Below, piece by piece: positions 7,459 through 62,245 of a stretch of 64,000 nt of DNA. Position 1 is the first letter of the stretch. The number at the start of each line of letters is the position of its first letter. Origin of the DNA: a bacterium (lineage in GTDB: Bacteria > Patescibacteriota > Minisyncoccia > Phycocordibacterales > UBA5272); contig JAYVHM010000001.1 of NCBI GenBank assembly GCA_043771335.1, positions 28,773 to 92,772 of the forward strand, given 5' to 3'. Made by a program: the position numbers and the translations under genes. The notes beneath the pieces are model-generated. The model was not told where the DNA came from and did no database searches. It worked only from the letters and a program-made list of their open reading frames with translations.

Positions 7459-7692
7459 GATATTTTTTAATTTATTATTTTTGTAAAAAGATATTAAGTT
7501 ATTTCTTATTTATAATTATAATATTTTAACAGTTATATATCTAGACTATGCAAGTCAAATATCTGTGTATTATGTGTAGAAGTCAAAATAATCATAAAAA
7601 TATAACTCTTGCATTTCAAAGACTTTTGTTGTAGTATGTAAAAGTAAGCCTATTTTAGGTTCTAAATCAACTTTTAAAGAAAGAGGTACAAA

Positions 7693-20729: not shown

Positions 20730-22346
20730 ATGAATGACATATTTACAAGTCAAAAAAGACAAGATACTTTACTGATAGAAAAATACAGTACTGACGCTAG
20801 CATTTTTAAAGTGACACCAAGAGAAGCTATAGAGTCTGTGGATTTTAAAAATGTAATCGAATCCATAAAAAACAAGGAAAAGTTTTCAGTTAGAGCCGCT
20901 GGAACATGCATGAGTGGTGGGTCGCTAACTAATGAAAAAGTAATACGTATAAAACCTATAAAAAACTTTAAACTTAAATCGGGAGACATAAATACAGAAA
21001 ATCCTTCTGACGACACTCAGAACATATCAGAATACATATGGGTTGATTCTAATATATATATAAAAGACTTATTAGAAGAATTAAAAAAAAGAAATAAGTT
21101 TTTTGCACCTTATACTAGCTCAAAAGACGTTTGCATGTTATCTGGAATGATAGGTAATAACAGTAGTGGAGAAAAGTCACTAACTTACGGACCAACTAGT
21201 AGAAATATTTCAGAATTAAAAGTTATATTAAATACAAAAGAACTTTATGGTGAAGTGTATCACGCCAAAGAAAAGAAAATAATGGAGAGTGATGGCTTAG
21301 AAAGATATGACTACAAATTTGAAGAAGAGATAGTAAATATAATAAAAAACAATCTAGAAATAATAAATAAAAATAAACCAACTACCAATAAAAATGCTGC
21401 TGGATATAACATGTGGGATGTGTACGATTCAGAAAAGAATACTTTTAATCTAACTCCACTTTTTATAGGAGCGCAGGGGACACTAGGTATAGTTACAGAA
21501 GCAAAAATAAAAATAAAAAATATTTTAAAATTTGAGTGTATGCTTATTATACCGCTTAGTAACATACATGAATTACCAAGTGTAGTTAAGGAAGCAGTGA
21601 GTGGTGGCGCCACTAGTGTTGAATGTTTTGATCATGAGACTTATGAATTAGCTAAAATACACATGGCTCAAGATTCAAAACTAGCAAATTACGCTAATAA
21701 TAAAAAAATAGTTATATTTGCAGAATTCTGCAATGATAAAATATCTGTAAATAAAAATAAAATAAATCTATTAAAAAATAATTTACATAAATTAGGAATA
21801 AATAGTTACTTGACAGAAAATATAGAAGAGAGCCAGGCTTATTGGAACATAAGGAGAGCAAGCTTTAAATTACTAAGAGACTTTGCTCCAAAGGGATACA
21901 AAGCGATACCAATCATAGAGGATACTATTATTTCACTCGAACATTATGACAACTACTTAAAAGAGTTGCTTGAAATACTTTACAAATATGACATGCGTTA
22001 TACTTATGCTGGACATATCGGAGATGGATCCATAAGACTAATACCACTTATAAGAAAAGACCAAACAGGAGCAAAAGAGGATATTTTAAATATGGCCGAC
22101 GAAGTATACACACTAGTCAAAAAATACAATGGTAGTATTAGCTGTGATCACAATGATGGACTCGCTCGCACTTATGCACTAAGCATGCAGTATGACGAGG
22201 AAATACTACATATATTCAAAGATATAAAATCTATTTTAGATTATAATAACATACTTAACCCGGGCAAGAAAATCACTCATTGTAAAAATTACAATAATAA
22301 TAGAGAAGCAAGGGAGTATGTATTAAAAAATATTTATCTAGCTTAG
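20730..22346 (+). CDS. FAD-linked oxidoreductase (PCMH-type FAD-binding, GlcD/D-lactate dehydrogenase-like)
   Basis: The N-terminal part has an FAD-binding-domain pattern 'VRAAGTCMSGGSL'. The 538-aa length is consistent with the family. Confidence 0.55.
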   Translation: MNDIFTSQKRQDTLLIEKYSTDASIFKVTPREAIESVDFKNVIESIKNKEKFSVRAAGTCMSGGSLTNEKVIRIKPIKNFKLKSGDINTENPSDDTQNISEYIWVDSNIYIKDLLEELKKRNKFFAPYTSSKDVCMLSGMIGNNSSGEKSLTYGPTSRNISELKVILNTKELYGEVYHAKEKKIMESDGLERYDYKFEEEIVNIIKNNLEIINKNKPTTNKNAAGYNMWDVYDSEKNTFNLTPLFIGAQGTLGIVTEAKIKIKNILKFECMLIIPLSNIHELPSVVKEAVSGGATSVECFDHETYELAKIHMAQDSKLANYANNKKIVIFAEFCNDKISVNKNKINLLKNNLHKLGINSYLTENIEESQAYWNIRRASFKLLRDFAPKGYKAIPIIEDTIISLEHYDNYLKELLEILYKYDMRYTYAGHIGDGSIRLIPLIRKDQTGAKEDILNMADEVYTLVKKYNGSISCDHNDGLARTYALSMQYDEEILHIFKDIKSILDYNNILNPGKKITHCKNYNNNREAREYVLKNIYLA

Positions 22347-23377
22347 TGAGGATGCGTGTGAATATTTTTTTCATTACTAGAAACCAAATATACAGCAATT
22401 ACTGTTGTCAGTGGTATAGCCAATAATAACCCTACAGAGCCGATAAGTGATCTAAATATTTCTGTAGCTATTATTTCTTTATTTAATAAAAATACTGGGT
22501 CTAATTTACTAGTATACATGAGTAAGAGTAACGGTAAGGCAGAACCAACATAAGCAAGGACAAGGGTATTAATCATAGCCCCAGCATGATCTGACCCTAC
22601 ACGCATAGCTCTTTTATAATATTCTGCGTTACTTAAATTTTTATTTGCATGTTTTAACTCAGCCACTATTCCTGCTTGAGTTATAGCACCATCATCCACC
22701 ACACCTATTACTCCTATTATTATGCTAGCTATTACCAGAAGTGGGAAATTAATAATTCCTTCTGTATTAAAATATAAATAAGAGCTTGTCTCATCTACAA
22801 ATCCAGTTATATTTGCATTAATAATAGTTAGATAAGAAATAATTATAGTTATAAAAATAGAAATAGAGCAACCAAGCAATGCAGAATGTGTTACTCTATT
22901 ATTACCATGAGTTAAAAACATAACGGAAAACAATAAACAAATAGAAATAAAACTTGCAACCAGTACTGGATTGTATCCTTTTAAAGTTAATGGGAGTAGT
23001 ATAAAAAATATAATACCAAGTGAGACCAGAAGTGAAGATAGAGCTCTAAGACCTTTTTTTCCAAATACAACAACTATGACAGATATAAATAAAAATAAAG
23101 TTATTAAAATAGAATTATATTTTACAGATTCTCCAAGATTATAATAAATAGAACCATCTATTTCTTTTATTTCCTCTAAAAAAACTCTATCTCCTATCTC
23201 AAAAGCATATCCATTTGAGTATGTGTTTATTATTTTACCGATATTTTCACCTTCTAATATTTCAACTTCATAATTTGGGAAAAGTACTTCAGTATTAGTG
23301 CTATTAATTATTTTTACTACTTCTGATTTATAATTATTAACTTCTGGTAAAATTATTTTAACTTCATTTTTATTCAT
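22343..23377 (-). CDS. YibE/F-family integral membrane protein
   Basis: An N-terminal extracytoplasmic domain is followed by multiple TM helices, and the C-terminal region 'GSDHAGAMINTLVLAYVGSALPLLLL' is typical of YibE/F. Confidence 0.55.
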   Translation of the reverse strand: MNKNEVKIILPEVNNYKSEVVKIINSTNTEVLFPNYEVEILEGENIGKIINTYSNGYAFEIGDRVFLEEIKEIDGSIYYNLGESVKYNSILITLFLFISVIVVVFGKKGLRALSSLLVSLGIIFFILLPLTLKGYNPVLVASFISICLLFSVMFLTHGNNRVTHSALLGCSISIFITIIISYLTIINANITGFVDETSSYLYFNTEGIINFPLLVIASIIIGVIGVVDDGAITQAGIVAELKHANKNLSNAEYYKRAMRVGSDHAGAMINTLVLAYVGSALPLLLLMYTSKLDPVFLLNKEIIATEIFRSLIGSVGLLLAIPLTTVIAVYLVSSNEKNIHTHPH

Positions 23378-23382
23378 ATATT

Positions 23383-23811
23383 TTAAGCACAGGACTTACA
23401 AAGTCCGTAAATATCTACAGAAGGGCTTGTGTTGACAGTAGAAAATTTTTTACTTTTCTTTACTAATTTTTTCAAAGACTCTTCAAAATAGCTGGCATTT
23501 ATTTTCTCCATAATCTCACAGTTATTACAAATAATTTTATGTACTACTTCATCGCTAGTCATCTCATAATGAGCATGACCGTGGTTATAGTCAAAACGAG
23601 ATATAATTCCTGATTCTTCTAATGATGTCAGGTTACGATAGACAGTGGCCTGATCTATATCATATCTTTTCTTTAAATCCTCTATTAATTTATGTACAGC
23701 TACTGGTGACTTGGATTTTGAGACTCGAGTTAACACAGCTAATCTGTGTTCAGTTAATTTTAAATCAGATTCTTTTATTAGACTTACCAATTCTGTTTCT
23801 GTGTATTTCAT
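23383..23811 (-). CDS. Fur-family metalloregulator (Fur/Zur/PerR-like)
   Basis: The protein is 142 aa with a winged-helix 'ATVYRNLTSLEESGII' and the metal-site residues 'HGHAHYEM' and 'CNNCEIM...CKSC'. Confidence 0.8.
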   Translation of the reverse strand: MKYTETELVSLIKESDLKLTEHRLAVLTRVSKSKSPVAVHKLIEDLKKRYDIDQATVYRNLTSLEESGIISRFDYNHGHAHYEMTSDEVVHKIICNNCEIMEKINASYFEESLKKLVKKSKKFSTVNTSPSVDIYGLCKSCA

Positions 23812-23824
23812 ATATTTTATAATT

Positions 23825-24403
23825 TTAATTATGTTTTCTATGAATATTAAAGGTTTTTAAAAGTAATCTTATGACAATTGCAAATAAAGAAGCTAAGGCC
23901 ACAGCTTCTAAAACTTCATGGTATTTTTCATTTATTTCTGTGCCTATATAATAAAAAATAAATGCAGAAATAGGCAAGCCCACTTGTGTATAAACTAAAT
24001 ATTTTATACTCTTTAAGAAAGTTTTTACTTCAGATATTATAATTAAATATGTTCCAAATATCTTAGGCAGTTCATGACCAAAAACAGATAAAAGTGTTCC
24101 CACTCCCAAGCTAGGATTAACATAAAAGGCAAAACCTATGATCGCTCCGTCTAAAAGAGAATGAATAAACTCTGTAAATATTAAAGCTTTTAACTCTTTC
24201 TTATGAGTGTGATTATGCGTAAAGTAAGTAATAAACAAGTAGACAAATATAAAGGAGAAGAAAACAATAATAAAACTTATTTTATTAAAATCATTTGAAT
24301 GCTCAAGTAATGAATCATAAAGTCCAAAACCAATAAACATAGACCCCAGTATTAGTGTAAAAGTTTGTATTTCTTTTTGATAATTTATAAAAAAGTTTTT
24401 CAT
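23825..24403 (-). CDS. Short ZIP-family (ZupT-like) divalent metal transporter
   Basis: Two ZIP signatures are present: the TM4 motif 'HSLLDGAIIG' and the TM5 motif 'GHELPKIFG'. The 192-aa length is short for the family. Confidence 0.55.
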   Translation of the reverse strand: MKNFFINYQKEIQTFTLILGSMFIGFGLYDSLLEHSNDFNKISFIIVFFSFIFVYLFITYFTHNHTHKKELKALIFTEFIHSLLDGAIIGFAFYVNPSLGVGTLLSVFGHELPKIFGTYLIIISEVKTFLKSIKYLVYTQVGLPISAFIFYYIGTEINEKYHEVLEAVALASLFAIVIRLLLKTFNIHRKHN

Positions 24404-24410
24404 GAATTTA

Positions 24411-24426
24411 TTGTATATTTATACAA
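24411..24426. promoter_or_regulatory. Candidate Zur/Fur-type operator palindrome in the divergent promoter
   Basis: TTGTATA-TT-TATACAA is a perfect 7-bp inverted repeat lying 8 nt from the ZIP-gene start codon, between the ZIP-Fur operon and the NAS gene. Confidence 0.4.
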
Positions 24427-24485
24427 AATATATCACAAATGCAAATAACTTGCAACTAGACAATAATTATGTTACTCTATGAAAA

Positions 24486-25247
24486 ATGAAAGATTTAAAG
24501 ATATTCCACAAAATATTAAACTTAAAATCCTTAAAACCTTCAAAAGAAACGAATGAGGCTTTTTCAGAATTAGTAAGATATTCTGAAAATAGCTTTAATA
24601 AAGTTAATCTAAATGAGTTAGAAATATTTAAACTTAGAAAACTTTCTTCTGAAGCAGAGTATGAGATGGAAGTACACTGGGCAGATAAAATAATAAAATC
24701 TAAAAACCCAAATGATGAACTTAAAAAGTTTTGGTATTATAAAAATTATGAAGATCTTGTAACTTTAGAACATATAAATATAATAAGTATAAATAAAAAA
24801 GTAAAGAAAGTTTTATTTGTAGGTGGTGGTCCATTACCACTAACAGCAATAGTATTAGCTACAAAATATAATAAAGATTGTATTGTACTAGAAAAAGATG
24901 AATTAAGTTTTTTAAAATCTTCTGAACTAATATCAAAATTAAAATTGGATAAACAGATAAAAATTATAAATATAAAAGCAGAAAATTATAACGCTTACAA
25001 TGAGTATGATTTAATTTACTTAGCAGCTCTGGTTGGGGAAAATGAAAAATCAAAGACTAAGACAGTCAATTATATCTACAAACGACTATGTAACAAAAGT
25101 TTATTTTTATGTAGATCGTCTCACGGAAGTAGAAAGATAATCTATAACCCTATTAATAAAAATATATTCAAAAAACTAAAACCCTTATTAGAAGTCAGGC
25201 CATATAGCTCCATAATTAATTCTTTTTTTATCTTGCAAAAAAATTAA
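24486..25247 (+). CDS. Nicotianamine synthase-like enzyme (NAS/CntL family, SAM-dependent aminobutyryl transferase)
   Basis: Three blocks align with plant and archaeal NAS. 'LKSLKPSKETNEAFSELV' aligns with 'LESLKPSKDVNILFKQLV'. 'KKVLFVGGGPLPLTAIVLA' aligns with 'VAFIGSGPLPLTSIVLA'. 'LIYLAALVGENEKSKTK...LFLCRSSHGSRKIIYNPI' aligns with 'VVFLAALVGMNKEEKVK...LMLRSAHGPRAFLYPIV'. Confidence 0.8.
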   Translation: MKDLKIFHKILNLKSLKPSKETNEAFSELVRYSENSFNKVNLNELEIFKLRKLSSEAEYEMEVHWADKIIKSKNPNDELKKFWYYKNYEDLVTLEHINIISINKKVKKVLFVGGGPLPLTAIVLATKYNKDCIVLEKDELSFLKSSELISKLKLDKQIKIINIKAENYNAYNEYDLIYLAALVGENEKSKTKTVNYIYKRLCNKSLFLCRSSHGSRKIIYNPINKNIFKKLKPLLEVRPYSSIINSFFILQKN

Positions 25248-33755: not shown

Positions 33756-34433
33756 ATGCTTTACTTCGAAAATGTAACAAAGGAATACTTAGGGAAAAAG
33801 ATACTAGATGGAATCAATATAAATATAGAAAAAGGCGAACTTGTTAGTATAGTAGGACATTCTGGTGCAGGTAAAACTTCTCTTATAAAATTATTATTAG
33901 CTGAAGAAAAGCCGACACATGGTAAAGTCTCTTTTCATTCTACATCTATACACACTTTAAAAGGCAGACTACTGAATGACTACAGAAGAAAAATAGGTGT
34001 AGTCTTTCAAGATTTTAGATTATTACCTAATAGAACAGCATATGAAAATATAGCCTTCGCAATGGAAGCAGCAGGGAAGAGCGACGCAGAGATAAAATCT
34101 GATGTTCCTCATGTTTTAGATCTTGTGGACCTTAAGGACAAGCTGCATCATTTTCCACATCAAATGTCAGGAGGAGAAAAACAACGTGTAGCTATAGCAC
34201 GCGCAATAGTTAACAGGCCTGATATAATAATCGCTGATGAGCCGACAGGTAATCTAGACCCTGTTAATACTTATGATATAGTTCAAATATTTAAAAAAAT
34301 AAATGACTTGGGAACCACTGTCATACTAACTACTCACAACAAGGGTGTGATAGATAATTTAGGTAAGAGAGTAATTACTATGGATGGTGGTAAAGTCTCT
34401 CGTGATGATAAAAATGGCAAATATGTCATTTAG
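33756..34433 (+). CDS. ftsE: Cell-division ABC transporter ATP-binding protein FtsE
   Basis: The Walker A 'GHSGAGKTS', the ABC signature '[14 protein letters not shown]' and the Walker B '[11 protein letters not shown]' are present. Confidence 0.9.
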
Positions 34434-51565: not shown

Positions 51566-51707
51566 ATTTTTTTATATAAATTAATCTTGCTTTTATTATA
51601 ACAAAAGAAAGACTTATTTAACACTTGCTAAAAGTTATAATATAGTGTATTATGTAATTTCCCATGAAGGTGTGAATGTCTCACACTAATATTAAAGGAG
51701 AAAACTC

Positions 51708-52016
51708 ATGGCCATCTTGAACAAAAAAACAAATAAAGCTTACCGGCCAGCAGAAGGCTATCAGTCTTGGAAAAATGTTCTCCAACTTCTAGGTCTGGAA
51801 GCTGAATCTCTTAAATTCACGAAAGATGGAAAGTTGAAAGAACTTTGTTTGAATACTATTTGGTATGCTATTGAGCAACACCAAAGATTTACTTCATTTT
51901 TACGCAAATTAATGCACAACATGAAAACAAAATCGAAGTACAAACCTCGTCTACCAAAATGGTTTACTATGGAGCCATCTATTATTCATCCGAAAATTCA
52001 TTACATTAAACATTAA
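51708..52016 (+). CDS. Hypothetical basic protein (102 aa)
   Basis: The ORF is preceded by an 'aaaggag' Shine-Dalgarno sequence and a palindrome GTGTGA-ATGTC-TCACAC at 51670..51686. A terminator follows at 52035..52075. Confidence 0.35.
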   Translation: MAILNKKTNKAYRPAEGYQSWKNVLQLLGLEAESLKFTKDGKLKELCLNTIWYAIEQHQRFTSFLRKLMHNMKTKSKYKPRLPKWFTMEPSIIHPKIHYIKH

Positions 52017-52034
52017 GTAATTAGGTAAATCCCA

Positions 52035-52075
52035 ATAGCTTCACAATTTTATTTTGTGAAGCTATTTTTATTTTT
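52035..52075. terminator. Bidirectional intrinsic terminator
   Basis: ATAGCTTCACAA-TTTTATTTT-GTGAAGCTAT followed by TTTTATTTTT. Confidence 0.55.
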
Positions 52076-52085
52076 AATCTTATAT

Positions 52086-53342
52086 TTAAATCTTAAACTT
52101 ATTTATAACTTTTTCTAAAGCAATAAAAAATAAATCAATATCTTCTTCTGTATTATAAAAATAAAATGAAACGCGTGTAAGAGCTGAGACTTCTAAGTTT
52201 TTTATAAGTAGCGCCGCACAGTGATGTCCGCTCCTAACACAAACATTATTATCTGCGAGTATCTGAGCTACGTCATGAGCATGCACATCATCTACAGCAA
52301 AACTTATAATACAAATATTATTCTCGAGATTTTCTTCTGAATAGATTTTTATTTTATCTTTTATATATGTACCGTCTGCAAGCTTATAAGTTTCTTGCTT
52401 TTTATAAAAATATTTTAATAATTCCTGATTATGATTATATATATTATCTAATCCAATCTTTTCTAAATAATCTACAGCAGCAGCAAAACCTATTACAGCA
52501 GGGATATTTTGCGTTCCTGCTTCAAAAGCTTTTATATCACTCCTATAATTACTTTCTAATTCATTAACTTCACCGACCATACCACCACCAACATAAACAG
52601 GTAACATATCGCGACTGTATAATCTCTTTAAAAATAAAATCCCAACTCCTGACGGTCCACACATTTTGTGTGAAGAAAAGTAAGCCGCATCACAATCCAA
52701 ATCTTTCAAGTTTACATTCATGTGCCCCACAGCCACGCTAATATCTAATACAGAAAATGCGTGAACCGCTTTACATTTTGCTATAATATTTTTCACAGAT
52801 TCTTCTTTTAAGACGAGTCCAGTAACATTACTAACTAATTGCATAGAGACTAACAAAGTTTTTTCCGTTATCTCTTTTTCAAAATATTCTAAATTGTTTT
52901 CTGTATTTAAAATCTTAATTGTAAGATTGTTTCTTTTTGCATATTCTTGTAGTGGCAGCAACTCACTATGATGAGTGCTGACACTCACCAATATCTCATT
53001 TTTTGTTTTGTATAAATCTTCGTATTTTGCTAAATGTTTTTCTATTAAGAGTACAAGCTTATTAGAACTGTCAGTTGCCCCTGCAGTGAATATGACTTCG
53101 TCATTTTCTACATTCAAAAATCTTGCAACTTTTTTTCTAGCTCCTTCGTATTTTTGCGTAGATATCTCTTCTATTTTGTACAACCCTCTATCTATATTAC
53201 TTTTATGATTAGTGTAATAATCATTCATAGACTCTATAACTTGATTTGGTATTTGCGAAGTTGAGGCATTATCAAAATAGACAAGCTTTGCGCTATTATT
53301 CTTTTCATAATTTTCAAATATTTTAAAATCTTCTCTATTCAT
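52086..53342 (-). CDS. sufS: Cysteine desulfurase (SufS/NifS-like class V aminotransferase)
   Basis: The PLP-lysine region 'FSSHKMCGPSGVGILF' and the active-site 'GHHCA' cysteine motif are present. The protein is 418 aa. Confidence 0.85.
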   Translation of the reverse strand: MNREDFKIFENYEKNNSAKLVYFDNASTSQIPNQVIESMNDYYTNHKSNIDRGLYKIEEISTQKYEGARKKVARFLNVENDEVIFTAGATDSSNKLVLLIEKHLAKYEDLYKTKNEILVSVSTHHSELLPLQEYAKRNNLTIKILNTENNLEYFEKEITEKTLLVSMQLVSNVTGLVLKEESVKNIIAKCKAVHAFSVLDISVAVGHMNVNLKDLDCDAAYFSSHKMCGPSGVGILFLKRLYSRDMLPVYVGGGMVGEVNELESNYRSDIKAFEAGTQNIPAVIGFAAAVDYLEKIGLDNIYNHNQELLKYFYKKQETYKLADGTYIKDKIKIYSEENLENNICIISFAVDDVHAHDVAQILADNNVCVRSGHHCAALLIKNLEVSALTRVSFYFYNTEEDIDLFFIALEKVINKFKI

Positions 53343-53400
53343 AATTAATCTTACTTGACATTATAACATAAATATTATTTTTAAAAAAGTAACTTTATTA

Positions 53401-53997
53401 TTAACTATTTAAAAAACTTTCTACTATCTCTTTTTCTATATCTTCTTTTTCAAAACCATGTAAAGCGAGATAATTAGCCTTCTCTTCACTAATCTTTGTT
53501 ACAGAGAATGAATGCGAACATTTAAAATCGTCTCCCAGTATGCTAAGTGCCGGCTCAGCATCGACTTCACTATCTTCGCTTAATTTTAAAAACTCTGCTT
53601 TTTGTTTTCCTGTACCACTACCACCTTCACTTTTTATATTAGATCTGTATATGATTTTTGCATTACCCTCCACCACACCTTTTGCTTTTATATTTACTTC
53701 TATATTTTTATTTTTTACTAATACCTCATGATAAATATCGCACACTTCACCCTCATTAGCCTCGTTACCAATTTTCCCTACACATTCTATATTTATTTTT
53801 ATATCCTCACGCACACTAATGCATTTTATGTGCATTAAATCACTTGTTAGGTTATGCTTTATAAAAATATCCCCATCACAATATATTTTATATATTCCAG
53901 ATTCAAATAAAACCACATCCCCCGCAGTAGTCATCACTTTCTCTTCATAATCTTTTAAATTATATTTTGTATTTACTTTTAATCCGTAATTAGTCAT
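53401..53997 (-). CDS. Short SufB/SufD-family protein (SufD-like)
   Basis: The C-terminus 'ANYLALHGFEKEDIEKEIVESFL' parallels the sufB C-terminus 'LFYLTGHGFSREDAYRLVVGGF', which itself matches the SufB C-terminal consensus. The central part is beta-helix-like and the protein is only 198 aa. Confidence 0.5.
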   Translation of the reverse strand: MTNYGLKVNTKYNLKDYEEKVMTTAGDVVLFESGIYKIYCDGDIFIKHNLTSDLMHIKCISVREDIKINIECVGKIGNEANEGEVCDIYHEVLVKNKNIEVNIKAKGVVEGNAKIIYRSNIKSEGGSGTGKQKAEFLKLSEDSEVDAEPALSILGDDFKCSHSFSVTKISEEKANYLALHGFEKEDIEKEIVESFLNS

Positions 53998-54070
53998 ATA
54001 TTAAAAATATTTTTTATATTGTAATTATTATAACACAAATATATACAGACTTGCAAAGATATCCATTTTG

Positions 54071-54109
54071 TTGTATTATGTTTTGGTAAATTGTTCTTTT
54101 AACCAAAAC
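54071..54109 (+). repeat. Conserved upstream element, copy 1 (about 38 bp, shared with 56420..56456)
   Basis: TTGTATTATGTTTTGGTAAATTGTTCTTTTAACCAAAAC. It contains the inverted arms TTTTGGT/ACCAAAA and ends 15 nt before the vWA gene ATG. Confidence 0.5.
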
Positions 54110-54124
54110 AGAAAGTGAGAAAAT

Positions 54125-54949
54125 ATGTCTGACAATGACAAAAAATCAAGTAACCTGCCTGCAATTTTTACTGCTCGTGACGCAAAAGCGAAAACAAGTG
54201 ATGAGCTAGCAATCGTAGCAAAGACTCATGCCCTGGACCCAGTCCTAAAAAAGCATGGTATCACCAGCACTGTAATCGACAAGTTCCGGTCAGTAGCTGA
54301 TGTTAGCGGATCTATGAATGTTTATTTTGATAACGGATTCGTACAAATCGCTACTGAGCTTGTCATTACTCTGTCACATCGCTTATTAAAAAATGAAAAT
54401 GCTGAAGTTGACTGTATTGGCCTTGGTAATGTCGCAAAAAATATTGGTAAGATTACTAAGAATCGGTACGGTTCTGCAGCGGCGCTAATACGCTCTCAAT
54501 TTGAAAATGATGAGCGAGGCACACTATACCTGCCAGCGATCAAAATGGCAGTAGGTAGTGGTGACATATCTGATGTTATTTACATTAGCTTTATTACTGA
54601 TGGCGAGGATGAGGGCAATCGTAATGATTTTATAAATTATGTTAAAAGCATAAAAAATAAAAAAGTTTTTGTGCAGTTCATCGGCCTAGGCAGCGAATAT
54701 GATCCACGCACCGGTGGTACTACAGGAGAGTTTTCCACTTTGATACAGCTGGAAAAAGATTGTGATTATGTAGGATTTTTCTCAATGAAAAATCCGAAAA
54801 CTACAAGCGAAGATGATGTGTATGACAAGATGCTTTACAAATTTGCCACATGGGCAAAGATTAATGGCATCATTGATATTTTCTCGGGAGCACAATCTAG
54901 TACTCCAAAAGTATCAGACCTTCGTCAAAAATATTTAGAATTAGGATAA
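54125..54949 (+). CDS. Cytoplasmic vWA-domain protein (TerF/TerY-like vWA, tentative subfamily)
   Basis: The MIDAS motifs are 'DVSGSMN', 'RGTLYLPAI' and 'FITDGEDEG'. There is no signal peptide. Confidence 0.6.
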   Translation: MSDNDKKSSNLPAIFTARDAKAKTSDELAIVAKTHALDPVLKKHGITSTVIDKFRSVADVSGSMNVYFDNGFVQIATELVITLSHRLLKNENAEVDCIGLGNVAKNIGKITKNRYGSAAALIRSQFENDERGTLYLPAIKMAVGSGDISDVIYISFITDGEDEGNRNDFINYVKSIKNKKVFVQFIGLGSEYDPRTGGTTGEFSTLIQLEKDCDYVGFFSMKNPKTTSEDDVYDKMLYKFATWAKINGIIDIFSGAQSSTPKVSDLRQKYLELG

Positions 54950-54964
54950 ATATTAAATAAATAA

Positions 54965-54990
54965 AACCCCACAAATTAATTTGTGGGGTT
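54965..54990. terminator. Bidirectional intrinsic terminator between convergent genes
   Basis: AACCCCACAAATTAATTTGTGGGGTT with flanking A- and T-runs. Confidence 0.6.
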
Positions 54991-54994
54991 GTTT

Positions 54995-56086
54995 TTATAT
55001 ATTTTGTATCTTTTTTTTGAAAGATTTTACACTACTTAACAGATCATCTGTTCCTGCATAATATGTTGAACTTCCATCGTAAGTTGTAGAAGATCCTAAA
55101 GTAACAAACATCATTTCAATCAGAAGCTCAAGCTTTTCATCTACCTTTGTACCGCTATCATTATTGACTTTTCCAGTCTCTCTTACATTTTCAAGAAGTT
55201 TTTCCAATGCATCAGCATTCAAAGACATCCTGTCATATGGAGATATTTTATCCTCAACTGATTTTAACTTTAAATTCACTTTATTGATTCGGCTTCTAAT
55301 TTCCTCTAATTTCTTAGACTCTTTATCGGCTTCAGCTTTTATGGCTTCCACTTCAGCTTTTTTGTTTGCAACTATTTTTTCAAACATATCCAGCTCAGAA
55401 GCAACATCAGCTTTGAAAGCATCTTCTTTCTTTGTTAATTTAGAAAGGAGTTCAGCTTCTTTTACTTTAACAGATTTTGGCTCGATGGTTTGGACTAAAA
55501 TAGTTTGAAGATAAGCCAAATCTTCTAATGTGCTTTTCTTGTCTAAAAGACTAACTAATTCCTCACTAGTAGATTTTGTTTCTTTCTCTAATTGTTCCGA
55601 GAGTTTTAATTGATCTGCAAAATATGCAGGTAATGTCTCTGGGTTTTTATTAAAAATAATAATCATTAATCTTTCGAACCAATTATGTTTTACATCAATT
55701 ACAATTTTTGTTACATTTGGTTTTTCTAGAAATTCTGAAAAGTTTACTGATGAATATTTCGAAAAAGATTTTTTTAATTTTGACAAATACTTACTATCAA
55801 AGTCAGCAAGTAAATTAGATAAGTCTAAAAATAAATCAGAAGCTTTTTCAGATTCTGTAAAAAACTTTTGCTTTTCACTTTCTACTTCGGTTATTTTATT
55901 TTTAAGATTTTCAACTAACTCAGAAGACTCTCTCTCTGGATTCACCTGACCAGAACAAAGCTCGTGCGCTAGGTCTGTATCTTTTTTAACTAAGGCTCTT
56001 GCAAATCTTAAAGATGTATCACTCACAACATCGTCCAATAACATTCTTAGAACTAATTTTCTCAACTTTTCAATACTTGTGCTCAT
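54995..56086 (-). CDS. All-alpha coiled-coil protein, possibly TelA/KlaA-like (toxic-anion-resistance family), tentative
   Basis: The 363-aa protein is predicted almost entirely helical with heptad-rich stretches. Both its length and its vWA neighbour fit Ter/TelA-type gene neighbourhoods. The family assignment is made from memory of that architecture only. Confidence 0.3.
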   Translation of the reverse strand: MSTSIEKLRKLVLRMLLDDVVSDTSLRFARALVKKDTDLAHELCSGQVNPERESSELVENLKNKITEVESEKQKFFTESEKASDLFLDLSNLLADFDSKYLSKLKKSFSKYSSVNFSEFLEKPNVTKIVIDVKHNWFERLMIIIFNKNPETLPAYFADQLKLSEQLEKETKSTSEELVSLLDKKSTLEDLAYLQTILVQTIEPKSVKVKEAELLSKLTKKEDAFKADVASELDMFEKIVANKKAEVEAIKAEADKESKKLEEIRSRINKVNLKLKSVEDKISPYDRMSLNADALEKLLENVRETGKVNNDSGTKVDEKLELLIEMMFVTLGSSTTYDGSSTYYAGTDDLLSSVKSFKKKIQNI

Positions 56087-56419
56087 TTTTCCGCTCCTTA
56101 ATAGTTTAAAAAGTACAGTGTCATACTACACTATTTATTACTTTTAGTCAAATATTTATTTCAAAAGTTTTTATTTTTCCTGTGTGACCTTTTAACAACT
56201 TAACACTGCTTTTAGTGGTCTCAAAATAATCAGCTAACATTTTTATTATCTATTTACTTGCTTCTCCATCTTTTGGTCTTACGCTCGTATAGACATGTAT
56301 CTCATCGAACATGTCCTTCTCTACTGTATTTCTCTTATTATTGGCATGTGCGGTTATTTTGATAATCATTTTAATATTATAACATGATTTTAGAGCCACT
56401 TGTAATTATCGTGTATTTA

Positions 56420-56456
56420 TTGTATTATTATTTTGTAATTGTTCTTTTAACTAAAT
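56420..56456 (+). repeat. Conserved upstream element, copy 2
   Basis: TTGTATTATTATTTTGTAATTGTTCTTTTAACTAAATA. It matches copy 1 at about 33 of 39 positions and ends 18 nt before the 56475 ATG. Confidence 0.5.
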
Positions 56457-56474
56457 AAAATAGGAGCTAATAGC

Positions 56475-56786
56475 ATGCGCGATAAAAATAGGCATTACCC
56501 AGATCATAAATATCGTCCGCCTGAAAAATATATCTTTCCTGGACCGAAAATAACCATGACTCGCTCTGTAATTGTCTCTCTTGTACTTATTGTTTCTATG
56601 TATTTTGGATTTATTCCAAGAGATATAGCTGTCAATGATCTGGGAGTTCAATTCATTGTAGACACGGCAAAAATATTTTTTTACTTGTCTCTCATATATT
56701 CTTTATATTTATGTTTTTGGATTTTACTTAGCATACTGATAATGCACAAAAACTTGAAACACTTAATGAAATTAGAGGAGAATTAA
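56475..56786 (+). CDS. Small membrane protein (103 aa, two predicted TM helices)
   Basis: The ORF has an 'aggag' Shine-Dalgarno sequence, and hydrophobic segments at residues 30-50 and 70-95. Confidence 0.35.
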   Translation: MRDKNRHYPDHKYRPPEKYIFPGPKITMTRSVIVSLVLIVSMYFGFIPRDIAVNDLGVQFIVDTAKIFFYLSLIYSLYLCFWILLSILIMHKNLKHLMKLEEN

Positions 56787-56787
56787 A

Positions 56788-57147
56788 ATGGGTATTTACC
56801 GACAAAAAGAAGATCTTGAAAATAAAGTTAGCAGAGTTTATGCTCATGTTCTAGAGCAGCTCCGAGCACATTTCCCAACACAGCAAATATTAATCTGCAA
56901 AGTAAATAATCTTGAATTAAAAGAGAGGGTAAAACAAGCTTGTGAACACAGAGAACCTGGAGGATTTTTAACTTTAACAATGGAAGAGCCTTTGAGTTGG
57001 TATATTATTATTAACGATGTCATGTACATAATTAAAATGACAACAGCTGCAGCGCTAAAAAGTTATACAATTAAAATCTTATCTGTTGAGCAATCAACTT
57101 TGAAAGCTGGTACACCTACTCCATTTCCAATTCTACAAGGCGGTTGA
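56788..57147 (+). CDS. Hypothetical protein (119 aa), translationally coupled to the 56475 gene
   Basis: The ORF starts 2 nt after the previous stop. Its 3' end overlaps the sufB 3' end by 32 nt on the opposite strand. Confidence 0.3.
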   Translation: MGIYRQKEDLENKVSRVYAHVLEQLRAHFPTQQILICKVNNLELKERVKQACEHREPGGFLTLTMEEPLSWYIIINDVMYIIKMTTAAALKSYTIKILSVEQSTLKAGTPTPFPILQGG

Positions 57148-58456
57148 ACTCAATGGCATACTCAAGGGGAAGCGAGCGGATTATCGGTGACACAAAACCA
57201 CCAACTACTAATCTATAAGCATCTTCTCTTGAAAATCCATGACCCGTGAGGTAAAATAACTCCTTATCACCAATCTTGCCGACTGTCGCTTCATGCGTCA
57301 CGTCGGCATTTTTATTTTCTATTTTATTCATAGGTAAGGTGATGCTAGAACTTTTCTCATCTAATATTAATGCATCACAAGAAACATAACTTTTTGCATT
57401 CTCTGCGCTCTTAGTGACATGAACTAATCCTCTATAATTAGAGACTCCTCCATCCATACTGACACTCTTGCTCTTTATCACTGAGCTAGTATTCTTACCT
57501 ATGTGTATTACTTTACTTCCAGTATCTTGATCCTGATTCTCTCCAGCGAATACTATACCTAGACTTTCTGATTTACTATTATCGCCAAGCAATACAGAAG
57601 TAGGATACAGCATAGTAACTTTTGAACCCATGTTGCCATTGATCCAGTTCATCTCTCCATTTTCATACACTAGGGATTTTTTTGTATTTAAGTTATAAGT
57701 ATTTTTAGACCAATTCTCCACACTTATGTATTTTGCTTTAGCATTTTTATGTACAAATATTTCTACGCAGCCAGCGTGCAAGCTGCTAGCATTATATTTT
57801 GGAGCACTACAACCTTCTATATATTCTACGCTCGCCCCCTCATCTACAATGATTAGTGTATGCTCGAACTGTCCAGCCGATGGCTCATTCATACGAAAAT
57901 ATGCTTGCAGTGGCATACTAACATTTACACCTTTTGGAATATAAATAAAAGTTCCTCCACTCCACACCGCCCCGTGCATGGCAGTAAACATGTGATCATC
58001 AGCTGGTACACAGTCAGTCATAAAATATTTCTGCACTAATTCTGGATACATATGCACGGCCGTGTCCATATTTTCAAATACTACTCCCTGCTTTTTTAAT
58101 ATATCTTTTACTTTGTGATAAACTATACCACTGTCATACTGAGCACCAACGCCACCAAGGTATTCATGCTCTGCTGCTGGTATGCCCAGCTTTACAAAAG
58201 TCTCCTTTATTTCACTTGGAACATCGGCCCACGAGCTCTTCTCGTCAGTTTGTGGTGATTTATAATAAGAGATATTTTCAAAATCAAGACCAGATAAATC
58301 AGGACCCCAAGATGGTAACCCCTTTACTTCTAAAATATTATTAAAAGTTTTGAGTGCCAATAATCTCTTCTCCAACATCCAACTGGGTTCATTCTTCTCA
58401 GAACTTATTTGCTTGACTAACTCTTCTGTAATTATGTTTTTTAGTACTTTTGGCAT
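57116..58456 (-). CDS. sufB: Fe-S cluster assembly protein SufB
   Basis: The 446-aa protein has the SufB signature C-terminus 'DKELFYLTGHGFSREDAYRLVVGGF' and a conserved core. Confidence 0.9.
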   Translation of the reverse strand: MPKVLKNIITEELVKQISSEKNEPSWMLEKRLLALKTFNNILEVKGLPSWGPDLSGLDFENISYYKSPQTDEKSSWADVPSEIKETFVKLGIPAAEHEYLGGVGAQYDSGIVYHKVKDILKKQGVVFENMDTAVHMYPELVQKYFMTDCVPADDHMFTAMHGAVWSGGTFIYIPKGVNVSMPLQAYFRMNEPSAGQFEHTLIIVDEGASVEYIEGCSAPKYNASSLHAGCVEIFVHKNAKAKYISVENWSKNTYNLNTKKSLVYENGEMNWINGNMGSKVTMLYPTSVLLGDNSKSESLGIVFAGENQDQDTGSKVIHIGKNTSSVIKSKSVSMDGGVSNYRGLVHVTKSAENAKSYVSCDALILDEKSSSITLPMNKIENKNADVTHEATVGKIGDKELFYLTGHGFSREDAYRLVVGGFVSPIIRSLPLEYAIEFNRLVELEME

Positions 58457-60526: not shown

Positions 60527-62245
60527 ATGCAAAATAGAAAACCATTTAAAAAATTTACACAAAATAGCGACCTTCTAGAAAGAAAAGGTGGGTATGTAGC
60601 GCCTCTAAAAGAAGGAAATATTAGAATCATAAATCTTGGGGGAACAGAAGAGTGTGGTAAAAACATGACAGCCCTAGAATACAAAGACAGCATAGTAATA
60701 ATAAATGCCGGAGTTCAGTTCTCAGCATCAAAAATGCCTGGAGTAGACTACATAATTCCAAATACAAAATACTTAGAAGAAAATATAGATAAAATAAAAG
60801 GTGTAATAATAACTAATAGCAGCCTAGAAAACTCTGGAGCTCTACCCTTTCTTATAGAAAAACTAGCGATTAAAAGAGTTTACGGTAGGCTATTTACTAA
60901 TACTTTGATACAAAAGAGAATGGAAGCAAAAGGGATAAATCACAACACCGAATTCGTTCCCGTAGAAGAAGAGATGGTAATGACTGTTGGAGATCTAGAG
61001 ATCAACTTTATAGCAATCAATCACACTACACCAGATTATTTTTCAATAGCAGTAAAAACTGAAGGTGGCGACATAGTATACACTAATGATACAAAAAATA
61101 TAAAAGATGCATTTGATTCTTCTTCTAAGAACATGCTCTTAATAGCTGAATCAATGAACACAGAAACTGGTGGTAAGCCAGTGACTTATCTTGATGTTAA
61201 GAATGATATAGAAGAGACTTTTAAAAGAGCTAGTAAAAAAATCATCGTCTCTACTTTTGCAAATAATATTTTTCATATTAAAACTATTTTAGAAGTAGCA
61301 GAAAAGTTAAATAAAAAAATCGTCTTAGATAGTAATACAATAAGTGAGAATATTTTATCAGCACAGGAGACTGGATTACTTGGTGACTTAAAAGACCTAA
61401 TCGTAAGTGTAGAGGATATAAGCAAATACAAAGCAAATGAAATAGTAATCTTAAACTCTGGAGAAGAAGGCCGTGAAGATGTTAACCTTACCAAAATAGC
61501 TGATGGGAATAATAGTAATATAAAAATAGAAGAAGGTGACGTGATAATAATAGCCACACATCCAATCATACACAATCAACGTTCTGCACAAAATCTAAAA
61601 GACAGTATCTCTAGATTAGGTGGTGTTATAAAACATTACAAATATGGTGACATCTTGATGAGTAACAGTGCTAATTTTGATGAGCTTACTGATTTACACA
61701 GAGGAATGAACCCAAAATTCTTTATTCCTGTTTCTGGTTGCCATTACATGTTACGTGTGCATGCTGACATAGAAAGAAAAATAGGAACTCCAGAAAATCA
61801 TATTATTATTCCAGATAATGGCATGGTAATAGAGGTCAAAACTGACGGATTAAGAATATCAAATACTCGTGAAAAAGTAGAGAGTGAGATAGTGGTAGTA
61901 GATGGAAATAAAATAGGCAAATTACACAATGTAGTAATAAAAGACAGAGAGACTTTGGGTGCTCAGGGTGTATTCTTTGCCATTATATTACTTGATATGC
62001 GTGGTCACAAATTGAAAAAGACTCCAGATATAGCAACACGCGGATTTGTATTTCTAAAAGAATCTCAAGACCTTCTAAATGGTGCCAGAGTTATAATCAA
62101 TGACATAATGACAGATTATCTGAGTAAAAATAGACACATAGAAATAGATGATTTAAAGGGAGAATTGCAAATGCTATTACAAAAATACTTAATGACGAAA
62201 ACTGCAAAAGAGCCGGTAGTTATACCACTAATAATAAAAGTATAA
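60527..62245 (+). CDS. RNase J paralogue with degenerate active site (predicted catalytically inactive)
   Basis: The protein is collinear with the downstream rnj ('IRIINLGGTEECGKNM' against 'IRIIHLGGLEEIGRNM'). The metallo-beta-lactamase motif 2 reads 'ITNSSLENSG' where 'ITHGHLDHIG' is expected. The beta-CASP His pair is also lost: 'SNSANFDE' replaces 'HSSGHANAGE', and 'SGCHY' replaces 'HGYHY'. Confidence 0.8.
   Translation: MQNRKPFKKFTQNSDLLERKGGYVAPLKEGNIRIINLGGTEECGKNMTALEYKDSIVIINAGVQFSASKMPGVDYIIPNTKYLEENIDKIKGVIITNSSLENSGALPFLIEKLAIKRVYGRLFTNTLIQKRMEAKGINHNTEFVPVEEEMVMTVGDLEINFIAINHTTPDYFSIAVKTEGGDIVYTNDTKNIKDAFDSSSKNMLLIAESMNTETGGKPVTYLDVKNDIEETFKRASKKIIVSTFANNIFHIKTILEVAEKLNKKIVLDSNTISENILSAQETGLLGDLKDLIVSVEDISKYKANEIVILNSGEEGREDVNLTKIADGNNSNIKIEEGDVIIIATHPIIHNQRSAQNLKDSISRLGGVIKHYKYGDILMSNSANFDELTDLHRGMNPKFFIPVSGCHYMLRVHADIERKIGTPENHIIIPDNGMVIEVKTDGLRISNTREKVESEIVVVDGNKIGKLHNVVIKDRETLGAQGVFFAIILLDMRGHKLKKTPDIATRGFVFLKESQDLLNGARVIINDIMTDYLSKNRHIEIDDLKGELQMLLQKYLMTKTAKEPVVIPLIIKV

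Follow-up and report, generated by a model that had tools for sequence, protein, structure and literature searches.

vWA proteins of the TerF/TerY type are widespread in bacteria and in large phages, and to our knowledge their ligands are not known. Anantharaman, Iyer and Aravind are said to have described, in 2012, such vWA proteins together with TelA in Ter stress-response clusters, and the TerY-P anti-phage system, reportedly presented by Millman et al. in 2022, combines a TerY vWA protein with a PP2C phosphatase and a Ser/Thr kinase. Here we analyze a 64-kb stretch of a Saccharibacteria (TM7) genome (contig JAYVHM010000001.1, belonging to a 211-kb metagenomic scaffold, ENA ERZ28573538; "the window" denotes this whole stretch), in which a 3.1-kb accessory block (53998-57115) at the sufB/sufD junction holds a gene for a cytoplasmic vWA protein, a convergent gene for a 363-amino-acid (aa) helical coiled-coil protein, two small genes, and a short sequence common to its two plus-strand transcription units. 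An earlier note, made from the letters of this stretch alone, had likened the helical protein to TelA. We find that the conserved core of the block is a two-gene module, vWA and helical protein, convergent around one bidirectional terminator. The pair is real, conserved and previously undescribed, a variant of the theme of a TerF-type vWA plus a helical partner with a narrow known distribution. Related loci or contigs are given L-numbers below and homologous proteins P-numbers.

Like the vWA proteins of Ter clusters, the protein encoded here belongs to PF10138, is cytoplasmic with an intact metal ion-dependent adhesion site (MIDAS), and is accompanied by an all-helical cytoplasmic protein of about 365 aa. 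Unlike in those clusters, the partner has no PF05816 similarity, the vWA protein carries no TerD domain, no TerB, TerC, TerD or phosphoribosyltransferase (PRTase) gene is nearby, the two genes are convergent instead of forming one operon, and the host is a reduced member of the Candidate Phyla Radiation (CPR). The TerY-P system shares with this locus a TerY/TerF-like vWA protein in a small accessory cassette, but the neighbors here are suf genes, a DUF167 gene and small open reading frames (ORFs), with no kinase or phosphatase and no PADLOC match. MoxR-vWA pairs (BatA/BatB, vWA-MoxR-VMAP) likewise join a MIDAS vWA protein to a dedicated partner, at times membrane-associated; here, however, the partner is a non-ATPase helical protein, and no AAA+ gene is found within 10 kb or on contigs L018, L023 and L024. 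The copine A domain, a cytoplasmic vWA domain with coiled-coil ligands in the part of PMC10968396 that cites Tomsig, Snyder and Creutz 2003, offers an analogy only; copines are eukaryotic, carry C2 domains and are regulated by Ca2+ and membranes.

Gene positions were taken from a six-frame ORF list of the window, in which all ORFs of the earlier note were recovered in place, and families were called with Pfam and NCBIfam. The genes of the locus, with transmembrane (TM) segments and distances in nucleotides (nt) where relevant, are as follows.

52086-53342, minus strand: sufS (373 bits, Pfam/NCBIfam)
53401-53997, minus strand: short SufD-like gene, 198 aa, with a SUFBD_core domain match
54125-54949, plus strand: vWA gene, 274 aa, PF10138
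54965-54990, both strands: bidirectional intrinsic terminator between the vWA and coiled-coil genes, G+C-rich, with an 11-bp stem and T-runs on either strand
54995-56086, minus strand: gene for the coiled-coil (helical) protein, 363 aa
56148-56399, minus strand: DUF167/YggU-like gene (PF02594) with an in-frame TAG
56475-56786, plus strand: tm103, a 103-aa ORF with two TM-like segments
56788-57147, plus strand: p119, a 119-aa ORF that begins 1 nt past the tm103 stop and is translationally coupled to it
57116-58456, minus strand: sufB (TIGR01980, 641 bits)

When 1.84 billion representative proteins were searched exhaustively with a profile of the 363-aa family, no word index being used, the search yielded a sole relative outside the clade, P0009 (366 aa, E = 7.5e-4), which aligns to the family over 105 N-terminal columns at 35% identity (hhalign probability 95.6%). 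P0009 and its 90%-cluster mates are encoded on five short contigs (L018, with a G+C content of 0.42, L019, L020, L023 and L024), and on 5/5 of these the gene is convergent to a PF10138 vWA gene. The second-lineage vWA protein scores 78.6 bits to PF10138 and is 41% identical to the window vWA over 261 residues, and a terminator hairpin comparable to the window's separates the pair (L018, ~1186-1212). The surroundings differ: rpoB lies divergent from the vWA gene, and a gene for a protein of 167-174 aa with three TM segments lies divergent from the coiled-coil gene. Because the lone distant homologue repeats the geometry beside the specific orthologue at a different address, we consider the vWA and helical genes to be one unit, which lends support, on grounds other than the note's own, to the functional unit suggested in the earlier note, and the two proteins probably work together.

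The vWA protein matches PF10138 (vWA-TerF-like) at 66.4 bits, against a cutoff of 29.4, with residues 56-245 aligned to positions 6-192 of the 200-position profile. Its MIDAS residues (D59-x-S61-x-S63, T133 and D159) are invariant in four sequences from two lineages, and the N-terminal motifs NLPA and KHGI are also invariant, the second lineage included. With a score above the Pfam cutoff, an intact motif and no TM segment in either the vWA protein or the 363-aa protein, the earlier description of a cytoplasmic vWA/MIDAS protein is confirmed and its TerF-like assignment supported. The protein also matches the uncharacterised phage family phrog_5359 of PHROGs (1.7e-21). Its next-best relatives, P0007 and proteins of large phages, are about 25% identical. 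P0007, the nearest non-orthologous vWA protein (25% identity; L016, 505-2026), is encoded by a gene that overlaps a PRTase_3 (PF15610) gene; this is a classical Ter-type context, unlike that of the window. PF07002 (Copine) co-matches P0007, while the window vWA has no Copine match at E<=1. The neighbors of the distant vWA homologues in phages include no coiled-coil or TelA gene, searches of the JGI metagenomes and IMG/VR with vWA and coiled-coil alignments found nothing, and word-index searches for homologues of the helical protein, the vWA protein and p119 returned the immediate clade only.

The 363-aa protein is acidic (pI, the isoelectric point, of 5.5; 65 Asp+Glu), and word-index searching places two close clusters beside it, at 76% and 68% identity. 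AlphaFold2 (AF2) models of the family, made from three and then four sequences, are helical throughout, with predicted local distance difference test (pLDDT) values of 47 and 50 and predicted template modeling (pTM) scores of 0.20-0.24. Scans of Pfam, NCBIfam, PHROGs and PADLOC gave the protein no family match at E<=1, only sub-threshold coiled-coil noise, and a profile of the family searched against PDB sequences matched only the designed coiled coils Ika8 and Ika4, with no relative among them. The TelA/KlaA reading of the earlier note, drawn from length and architecture, finds no support in the sequence: PF05816 (TelA) gives no match at E<=1 in any of the four members (the window protein, P0002, P0003 and P0009), NCBIfam is likewise null, and TelA identity was rejected at the sequence level on the null scans of all four databases for the protein and its relatives. 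No TerD, TerB, TerC, TelA or PRTase gene occurs among the precomputed Pfam hits of the called genes, which cover about 56 kb of the window (the first 8 kb lie outside), and the second-lineage contigs likewise have none. The protein thus appears to represent an undescribed family of ~365-aa acidic, all-helical proteins with predicted coiled coils, and its annotation should not carry the TelA label.

The two plus-strand units of the block, vWA and tm103-p119, are preceded by similar sequences. Promoters in the following list were predicted with a consensus scan.

54027-54056, minus strand: sufD-sufS promoter, TTGCAA-18-TATAAT with TG; TGTTATAAT at 54035-54027
54051-54079, plus strand: vWA promoter, TTGCAA-17-TATTAT, -10 at 54074-54079 with TG in front
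54080-54109, plus strand: element copy 1, GTTTTGGTAAATTGTTCTTTTAACCAAAAC, directly past the vWA -10 and ending ~15 nt before the ATG
56123-56151, minus strand: separate promoter predicted for the coiled-coil gene, TTGACT-17-TAGTAT, without the shared element
56400-56428, plus strand: tm103-p119 promoter, TTGTAA-17-TATTAT, TG-extended
56429-56457, plus strand: element copy 2, TATTTTGTAATTGTTCTTTTAACTAAATA, ahead of tm103-p119

Both copies of the duplicated 38-bp element proposed in the earlier note are present, with ~32/39 aligned columns matching, but these are composite. The 5' third, TTGTATTAT, amounts to the extended -10 that is generic in this genome; this -10, the first nine bases of the element, also occurs at 7566, 49295 and 51646 ahead of unrelated genes. 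To that extent the element is a common promoter motif, as the note had allowed it might be, and the rest is locus-specific. The specific part, ~25 nt that read GTAA(A)TTGTTCTTTTAAC(Y)AAA, follows right after each -10 and has only these two sites in the window, as does the core AATTGTTCTTTTAACYAAA (54089 and 56437); the shared element is also written GTAATTGTTCTTTTAAC, its specific part GTAA(A)TTGTTCTTTWAAY and its core CTTTTAAC. The copies are placed alike: each lies ~10 nt past a predicted -10, with 21-23 nt left to the start codon. In relatives, of which some 60 kb were covered, the specific part is confined to the homologous sites, and a scan of the JGI metagenomes for the element gave two matches, both in a 586-aa ORF of an unrelated organism and judged to be chance.

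Conservation sets the element apart from its surroundings. Over the stretch from TTGTATTAT to TTTTAAC (54071-54103, generic -10 included) the window and L002 are identical at 31/33 positions, compared with 33/72 in the upstream flank and 6/14 in the promoter spacer (about 45%), and the paralogous copies match each other at 28-30/33. In L002, where tm103 is missing, the element stands directly upstream of the p119 orthologue, and the same is true of L017. The two plus-strand units share a specific, conserved promoter-proximal sequence, as the earlier note had proposed. The inverted repeat TTTTGGT/ACCAAAA, which it had described inside the element, is not supported as a functional core because it is not conserved: in the window and L006 only the vWA copy carries it, the tm103 copy lacks it, and in L002 it is degraded.

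The second lineage offers a parallel. Upstream of its vWA gene and of the divergent membrane-protein gene, L023 has two stretches in common, exactly and in the same order, namely AATTGTTGTCAAATA (15 nt) and AGCTCTTTAACT (12 nt). These hold both halves of the first-lineage core, AATTGTT and CTYTTTAAC. CTCTTTAAC is among the shared blocks of that lineage, at the same distance to the start codon as in the first. CTYTTTAAC ends 16-23 nt ahead of the start codon in 7/7 leaders from both lineages, against a background of six occurrences in the window's 128 kb (both strands). Identical placement, conservation at both sites in relatives and the second-lineage parallel together lead us to regard the element as real.

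RNA structure was considered as the conserved feature and rejected: the hairpin is found in one copy only, and there is no Rfam family or shared fold. The seven leaders have no significant or common fold compared with shuffled sequences (z from -1.8 to +1.3), and anti-Shine-Dalgarno pairing is weak; Rfam 15 gave nothing at 54080-54109 and 56429-56457, with only sub-threshold terminator-like matches at 54867-55039. As no stable or shared fold emerges, recognition of the primary sequence is favored, and the simplest view is that a protein reads it, the site being either an operator across the transcription start or an RNA-binding site.

The promoters themselves are of a type found across the window. 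The vWA and tm103-p119 units each have a predicted TTGYAA/TGTATTAT promoter, the combination of a TTGCAA-like -35 with TGTATTAT occurs at 7566, 49295, 51646, 54072 and 56421, and the TGTTATAAT form is found at 53360-53368(-) and 54027-54035(-), so that many genes, sufS and sufD included, appear to own an extended -10 promoter. By prediction, the vWA promoter on the plus strand and the sufD-sufS promoter on the minus strand use one and the same -35, the palindromic hexamer TTGCAA (54051-54056); this back-to-back pair (54027-54079) is kept in L002 and L006. Polymerase bound at one of the two should block the other. The promoter of the coiled-coil gene (56123-56151) is likewise kept in L002 and L006. 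The TGTATTAT promoter at 51646 belongs to a 102-aa ORF (51708-52016, plus strand) between sufS and gltX that has no family match; tblastn finds no counterpart of the ORF in L002, whose sufS and gltX have no called gene between them.

Pfam and NCBIfam verified SufB, SufD and SufS on either side of the block, and comparison with relatives bore out the view that it interrupts the suf genes. By SufB, the relatives among GTDB genomes are metagenome-assembled genomes (MAGs) from glacier streams (85-89% identity) and Candidatus Saccharibacteria MAGs (67-77%). According to tblastn and ORF maps, sufB is followed directly by sufD and sufS in L010 and L013. Two unrelated small reverse-strand ORFs separate sufB from sufD in L011; in L008 (SufB 89%) sufB is followed by a small TM protein, a YafQ-family toxin, a 104-aa ORF and a tm103 homologue; and in L009 sufD/sufS are not present after sufB. 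These variable stretches of the sufB 3' flank span L008 9298-10883, L009 9331-11352 and L011 9320-10075. In this comparison the vWA/363-aa block is confined to the window, L006, L002/L007 and L017, and its position never varies. Since relatives have either contiguous sufB-sufD-sufS or other ORFs in the slot, the block is an accessory insertion, specific to its lineage, into a hypervariable slot by sufB.

The short SufD is a feature of the clade and not a truncation, as it measures 197-207 aa in L010 and L011. The earlier note had found no sufC in the window, and we agree: the 64 kb contain no gene for SufC or SufU, and the only similar ATPase (33756-34433) is FtsE beside FtsX. In remoter Saccharibacteria the order is sufS-sufU-sufC (L011 11954-12914; L012 4408-5574; L013 11434-12598), while in the window (51566-52085) and L002 gltX comes next after sufS, without sufU or sufC. 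Either these genes have been relocated or the clade uses SufB/SufD/SufS without a linked ATPase. At the other end of the block, the 3' ends of p119 and sufB overlap convergently by 32 nt (57116-57147) with no terminator between, in L002 as in the window, and read-through there would yield RNA antisense to sufB and to the cassette.

The small genes conform to the earlier description of a 103-aa two-TM protein and a coupled 119-aa protein, but tm103 varies among relatives. Its product is basic, it is dispensable, being absent from L002 and L017, and L008 has a homologue with 38% identity. The p119 product is soluble and belongs to no Pfam or NCBIfam family; an orthologue in L002 is 52% identical, the word-index search found no further homologues, and the 104-aa protein of L008 has no detectable homology to it. 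The DUF167 gene, absent from the earlier note, has its TAG at 56250-56252 and scores 53 bits to PF02594 when read through. In L006 the codon is GAG, whereas L002 and L017 have lost most of the gene; it is a recent pseudogene, seen at three stages of decay, and no part of the module.

With roughly even confidence, we read the block as a vWA/helical module with a co-regulated small-gene unit, Ter-like but not TelA. TelA and TerF-type vWA proteins have been proposed to form sub-membrane structures (PMC7824862), and copine vWA domains bind coiled-coil motifs according to the part of PMC10968396 that cites Tomsig et al. 2003. By analogy, the vWA MIDAS site may dock onto an acidic residue of its helical partner, a protein that is itself acidic, and the two proteins could build a cytoplasmic or sub-membrane assembly for which the small membrane protein is a possible anchor. 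Its role would lie in the response to stress from phages, xenobiotics or damage to the envelope, and the assembly would resemble the proposed TerF-vWA plus TelA structure, outside the TelA family. The shared sequence would be the site of a sequence-specific regulator, as an operator over the transcription start or, less likely, at the RNA level, and this regulator would switch the vWA gene and the small-gene unit together while the coiled-coil gene runs from its own promoter.

Several observations weigh against this interpretation. The pair is known from two lineages only (n = 2 independent contexts), and a convergent, non-operonic layout is unusual for partners. Because tm103 is missing in L002 and L017, a membrane anchor cannot be a constant component, and the small neighbor proteins of the two lineages have no detectable homology (tm174 versus tm103 and p119). 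The AF2 models support the word "helical" and nothing further, a fold comparison with TelA being meaningless at a pLDDT of 47-50. No regulator gene lies in the block. In an AT-rich window such as this, the repeat alone proves little, as 13 pairs of 19-mers recur here with <=1 mismatch. The cross-lineage CTYTTTAAC is short (9 nt, one degenerate) and was chosen post hoc, with a chance probability that we estimate from the background rate at about 1e-3 to 1e-2, so the match is suggestive and no proof.

In the likeliest alternative the block is no system at all: unrelated accessory genes would simply collect in the 3' flank of sufB, the vWA and helical genes would co-travel, and the upstream sequence would be a duplicated strong promoter plus leader, with no regulator of its own. 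The slot is indeed hypervariable (the YafQ toxin of L008, loss of sufD/S in L009, other ORFs in L011, the DUF167 pseudogene, the tm103 indel), the 5' part of the element is a generic -10 in a window where 19-mer repeats are common, and the two promoter spacers of L002 are alike at 10-11/14 positions, suggesting promoter duplication or conversion. Nevertheless, the only distant helical homologue is again convergent to an orthologous vWA gene in a new context, conservation of the element's 3' part far exceeds that of its flanks, and the second lineage has an equivalent pair of shared blocks; we consider this explanation unlikely. Distinctly less probable is that the module serves Fe-S assembly, perhaps as a metal-binding accessory or SufBD chaperone, a role that the site between sufB and sufD, the TTGCAA -35 common to the vWA and sufDS promoters, the metal-binding MIDAS and the local lack of sufU and sufC might suggest. 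The second lineage carries the pair beside rpoB and not suf, which makes such a link very improbable, and the closest genomes with contiguous or otherwise interrupted suf genes lack the pair there.

Two further explanations, each of which we hold to be quite improbable, give the block a role in resistance. In one, the helical protein is a highly diverged TelA/KlaA and the block a reduced Ter system of the TerF-vWA plus TelA type, conferring tellurite, toxic-anion or phage resistance. Membership of the vWA protein in PF10138, a partner that is ~365 aa, all-helical and cytoplasmic as TelA is, the described association of TelA with TerF-vWA (PMC7824862) and the Ter-type PRTase_3 gene adjoining P0007 would fit. 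This has to be set against the lack of any PF05816 match at E<=1 in four members or of an NCBIfam match, the profile search, which at E<=0.001 returned only the family itself and P0009, and the absence of Ter companion genes from ~56 kb of the window and from the second-lineage contigs. As TelA proteins are common, one related at the level of hidden Markov models (HMMs) would have surfaced. The other makes the block a defence module, directed against phages or derived from mobile elements, in which the vWA protein would be a sensor or an effector partner, comparable to TerY-P or vWA-MoxR conflict systems. The best vWA profile match is to the phage family phrog_5359, distant homologues occur in large phages, the region is variable and beside toxin-antitoxin genes in a relative, and the distribution is patchy across two distant lineages; but the block proteins have no PADLOC match (E<=1), no kinase, phosphatase, MoxR ATPase, nuclease, integrase or other effector lies nearby in either lineage, IMG/VR was null, and the phage vWA genes lack a coiled-coil neighbor.

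Elsewhere in the window, we observed a metal-homeostasis cluster (22343-25247) with genes for a YibE/F-like membrane protein, a Fur-family regulator (23383-23811), a ZIP transporter and a nicotianamine-synthase-like protein (24486-25247), the last being unusual in bacteria. Two RNase J paralogues stand in tandem (60527-62245 and the next gene, from ~62294). The first has the RNase J beta-CASP and C-terminal domains, with no Lactamase_B among its precomputed Pfam hits.

A broader form of the vWA/helical module reading, which we put forward tentatively and think somewhat unlikely, is that a self-contained module occurs in the CPR and an unrelated lineage, made up of a MIDAS vWA protein, a ~365-aa coiled-coil family and a small membrane protein, with the genes in fixed convergent geometry around a shared terminator and with the leader motif CTYTTTAAC ~20 nt before the starts; it would be a TelA-independent counterpart of Ter with a dedicated regulator. 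The conserved coiled-coil partner offers a concrete candidate ligand for a TerF/TerY-type vWA protein. That the pair is kept in a minimal Saccharibacteria genome with few accessory genes suggests a use in epibiotic life, for instance in envelope or phage stress. The leader element may provide a handle on a regulator in a phylum whose transcriptional regulation is almost unstudied.

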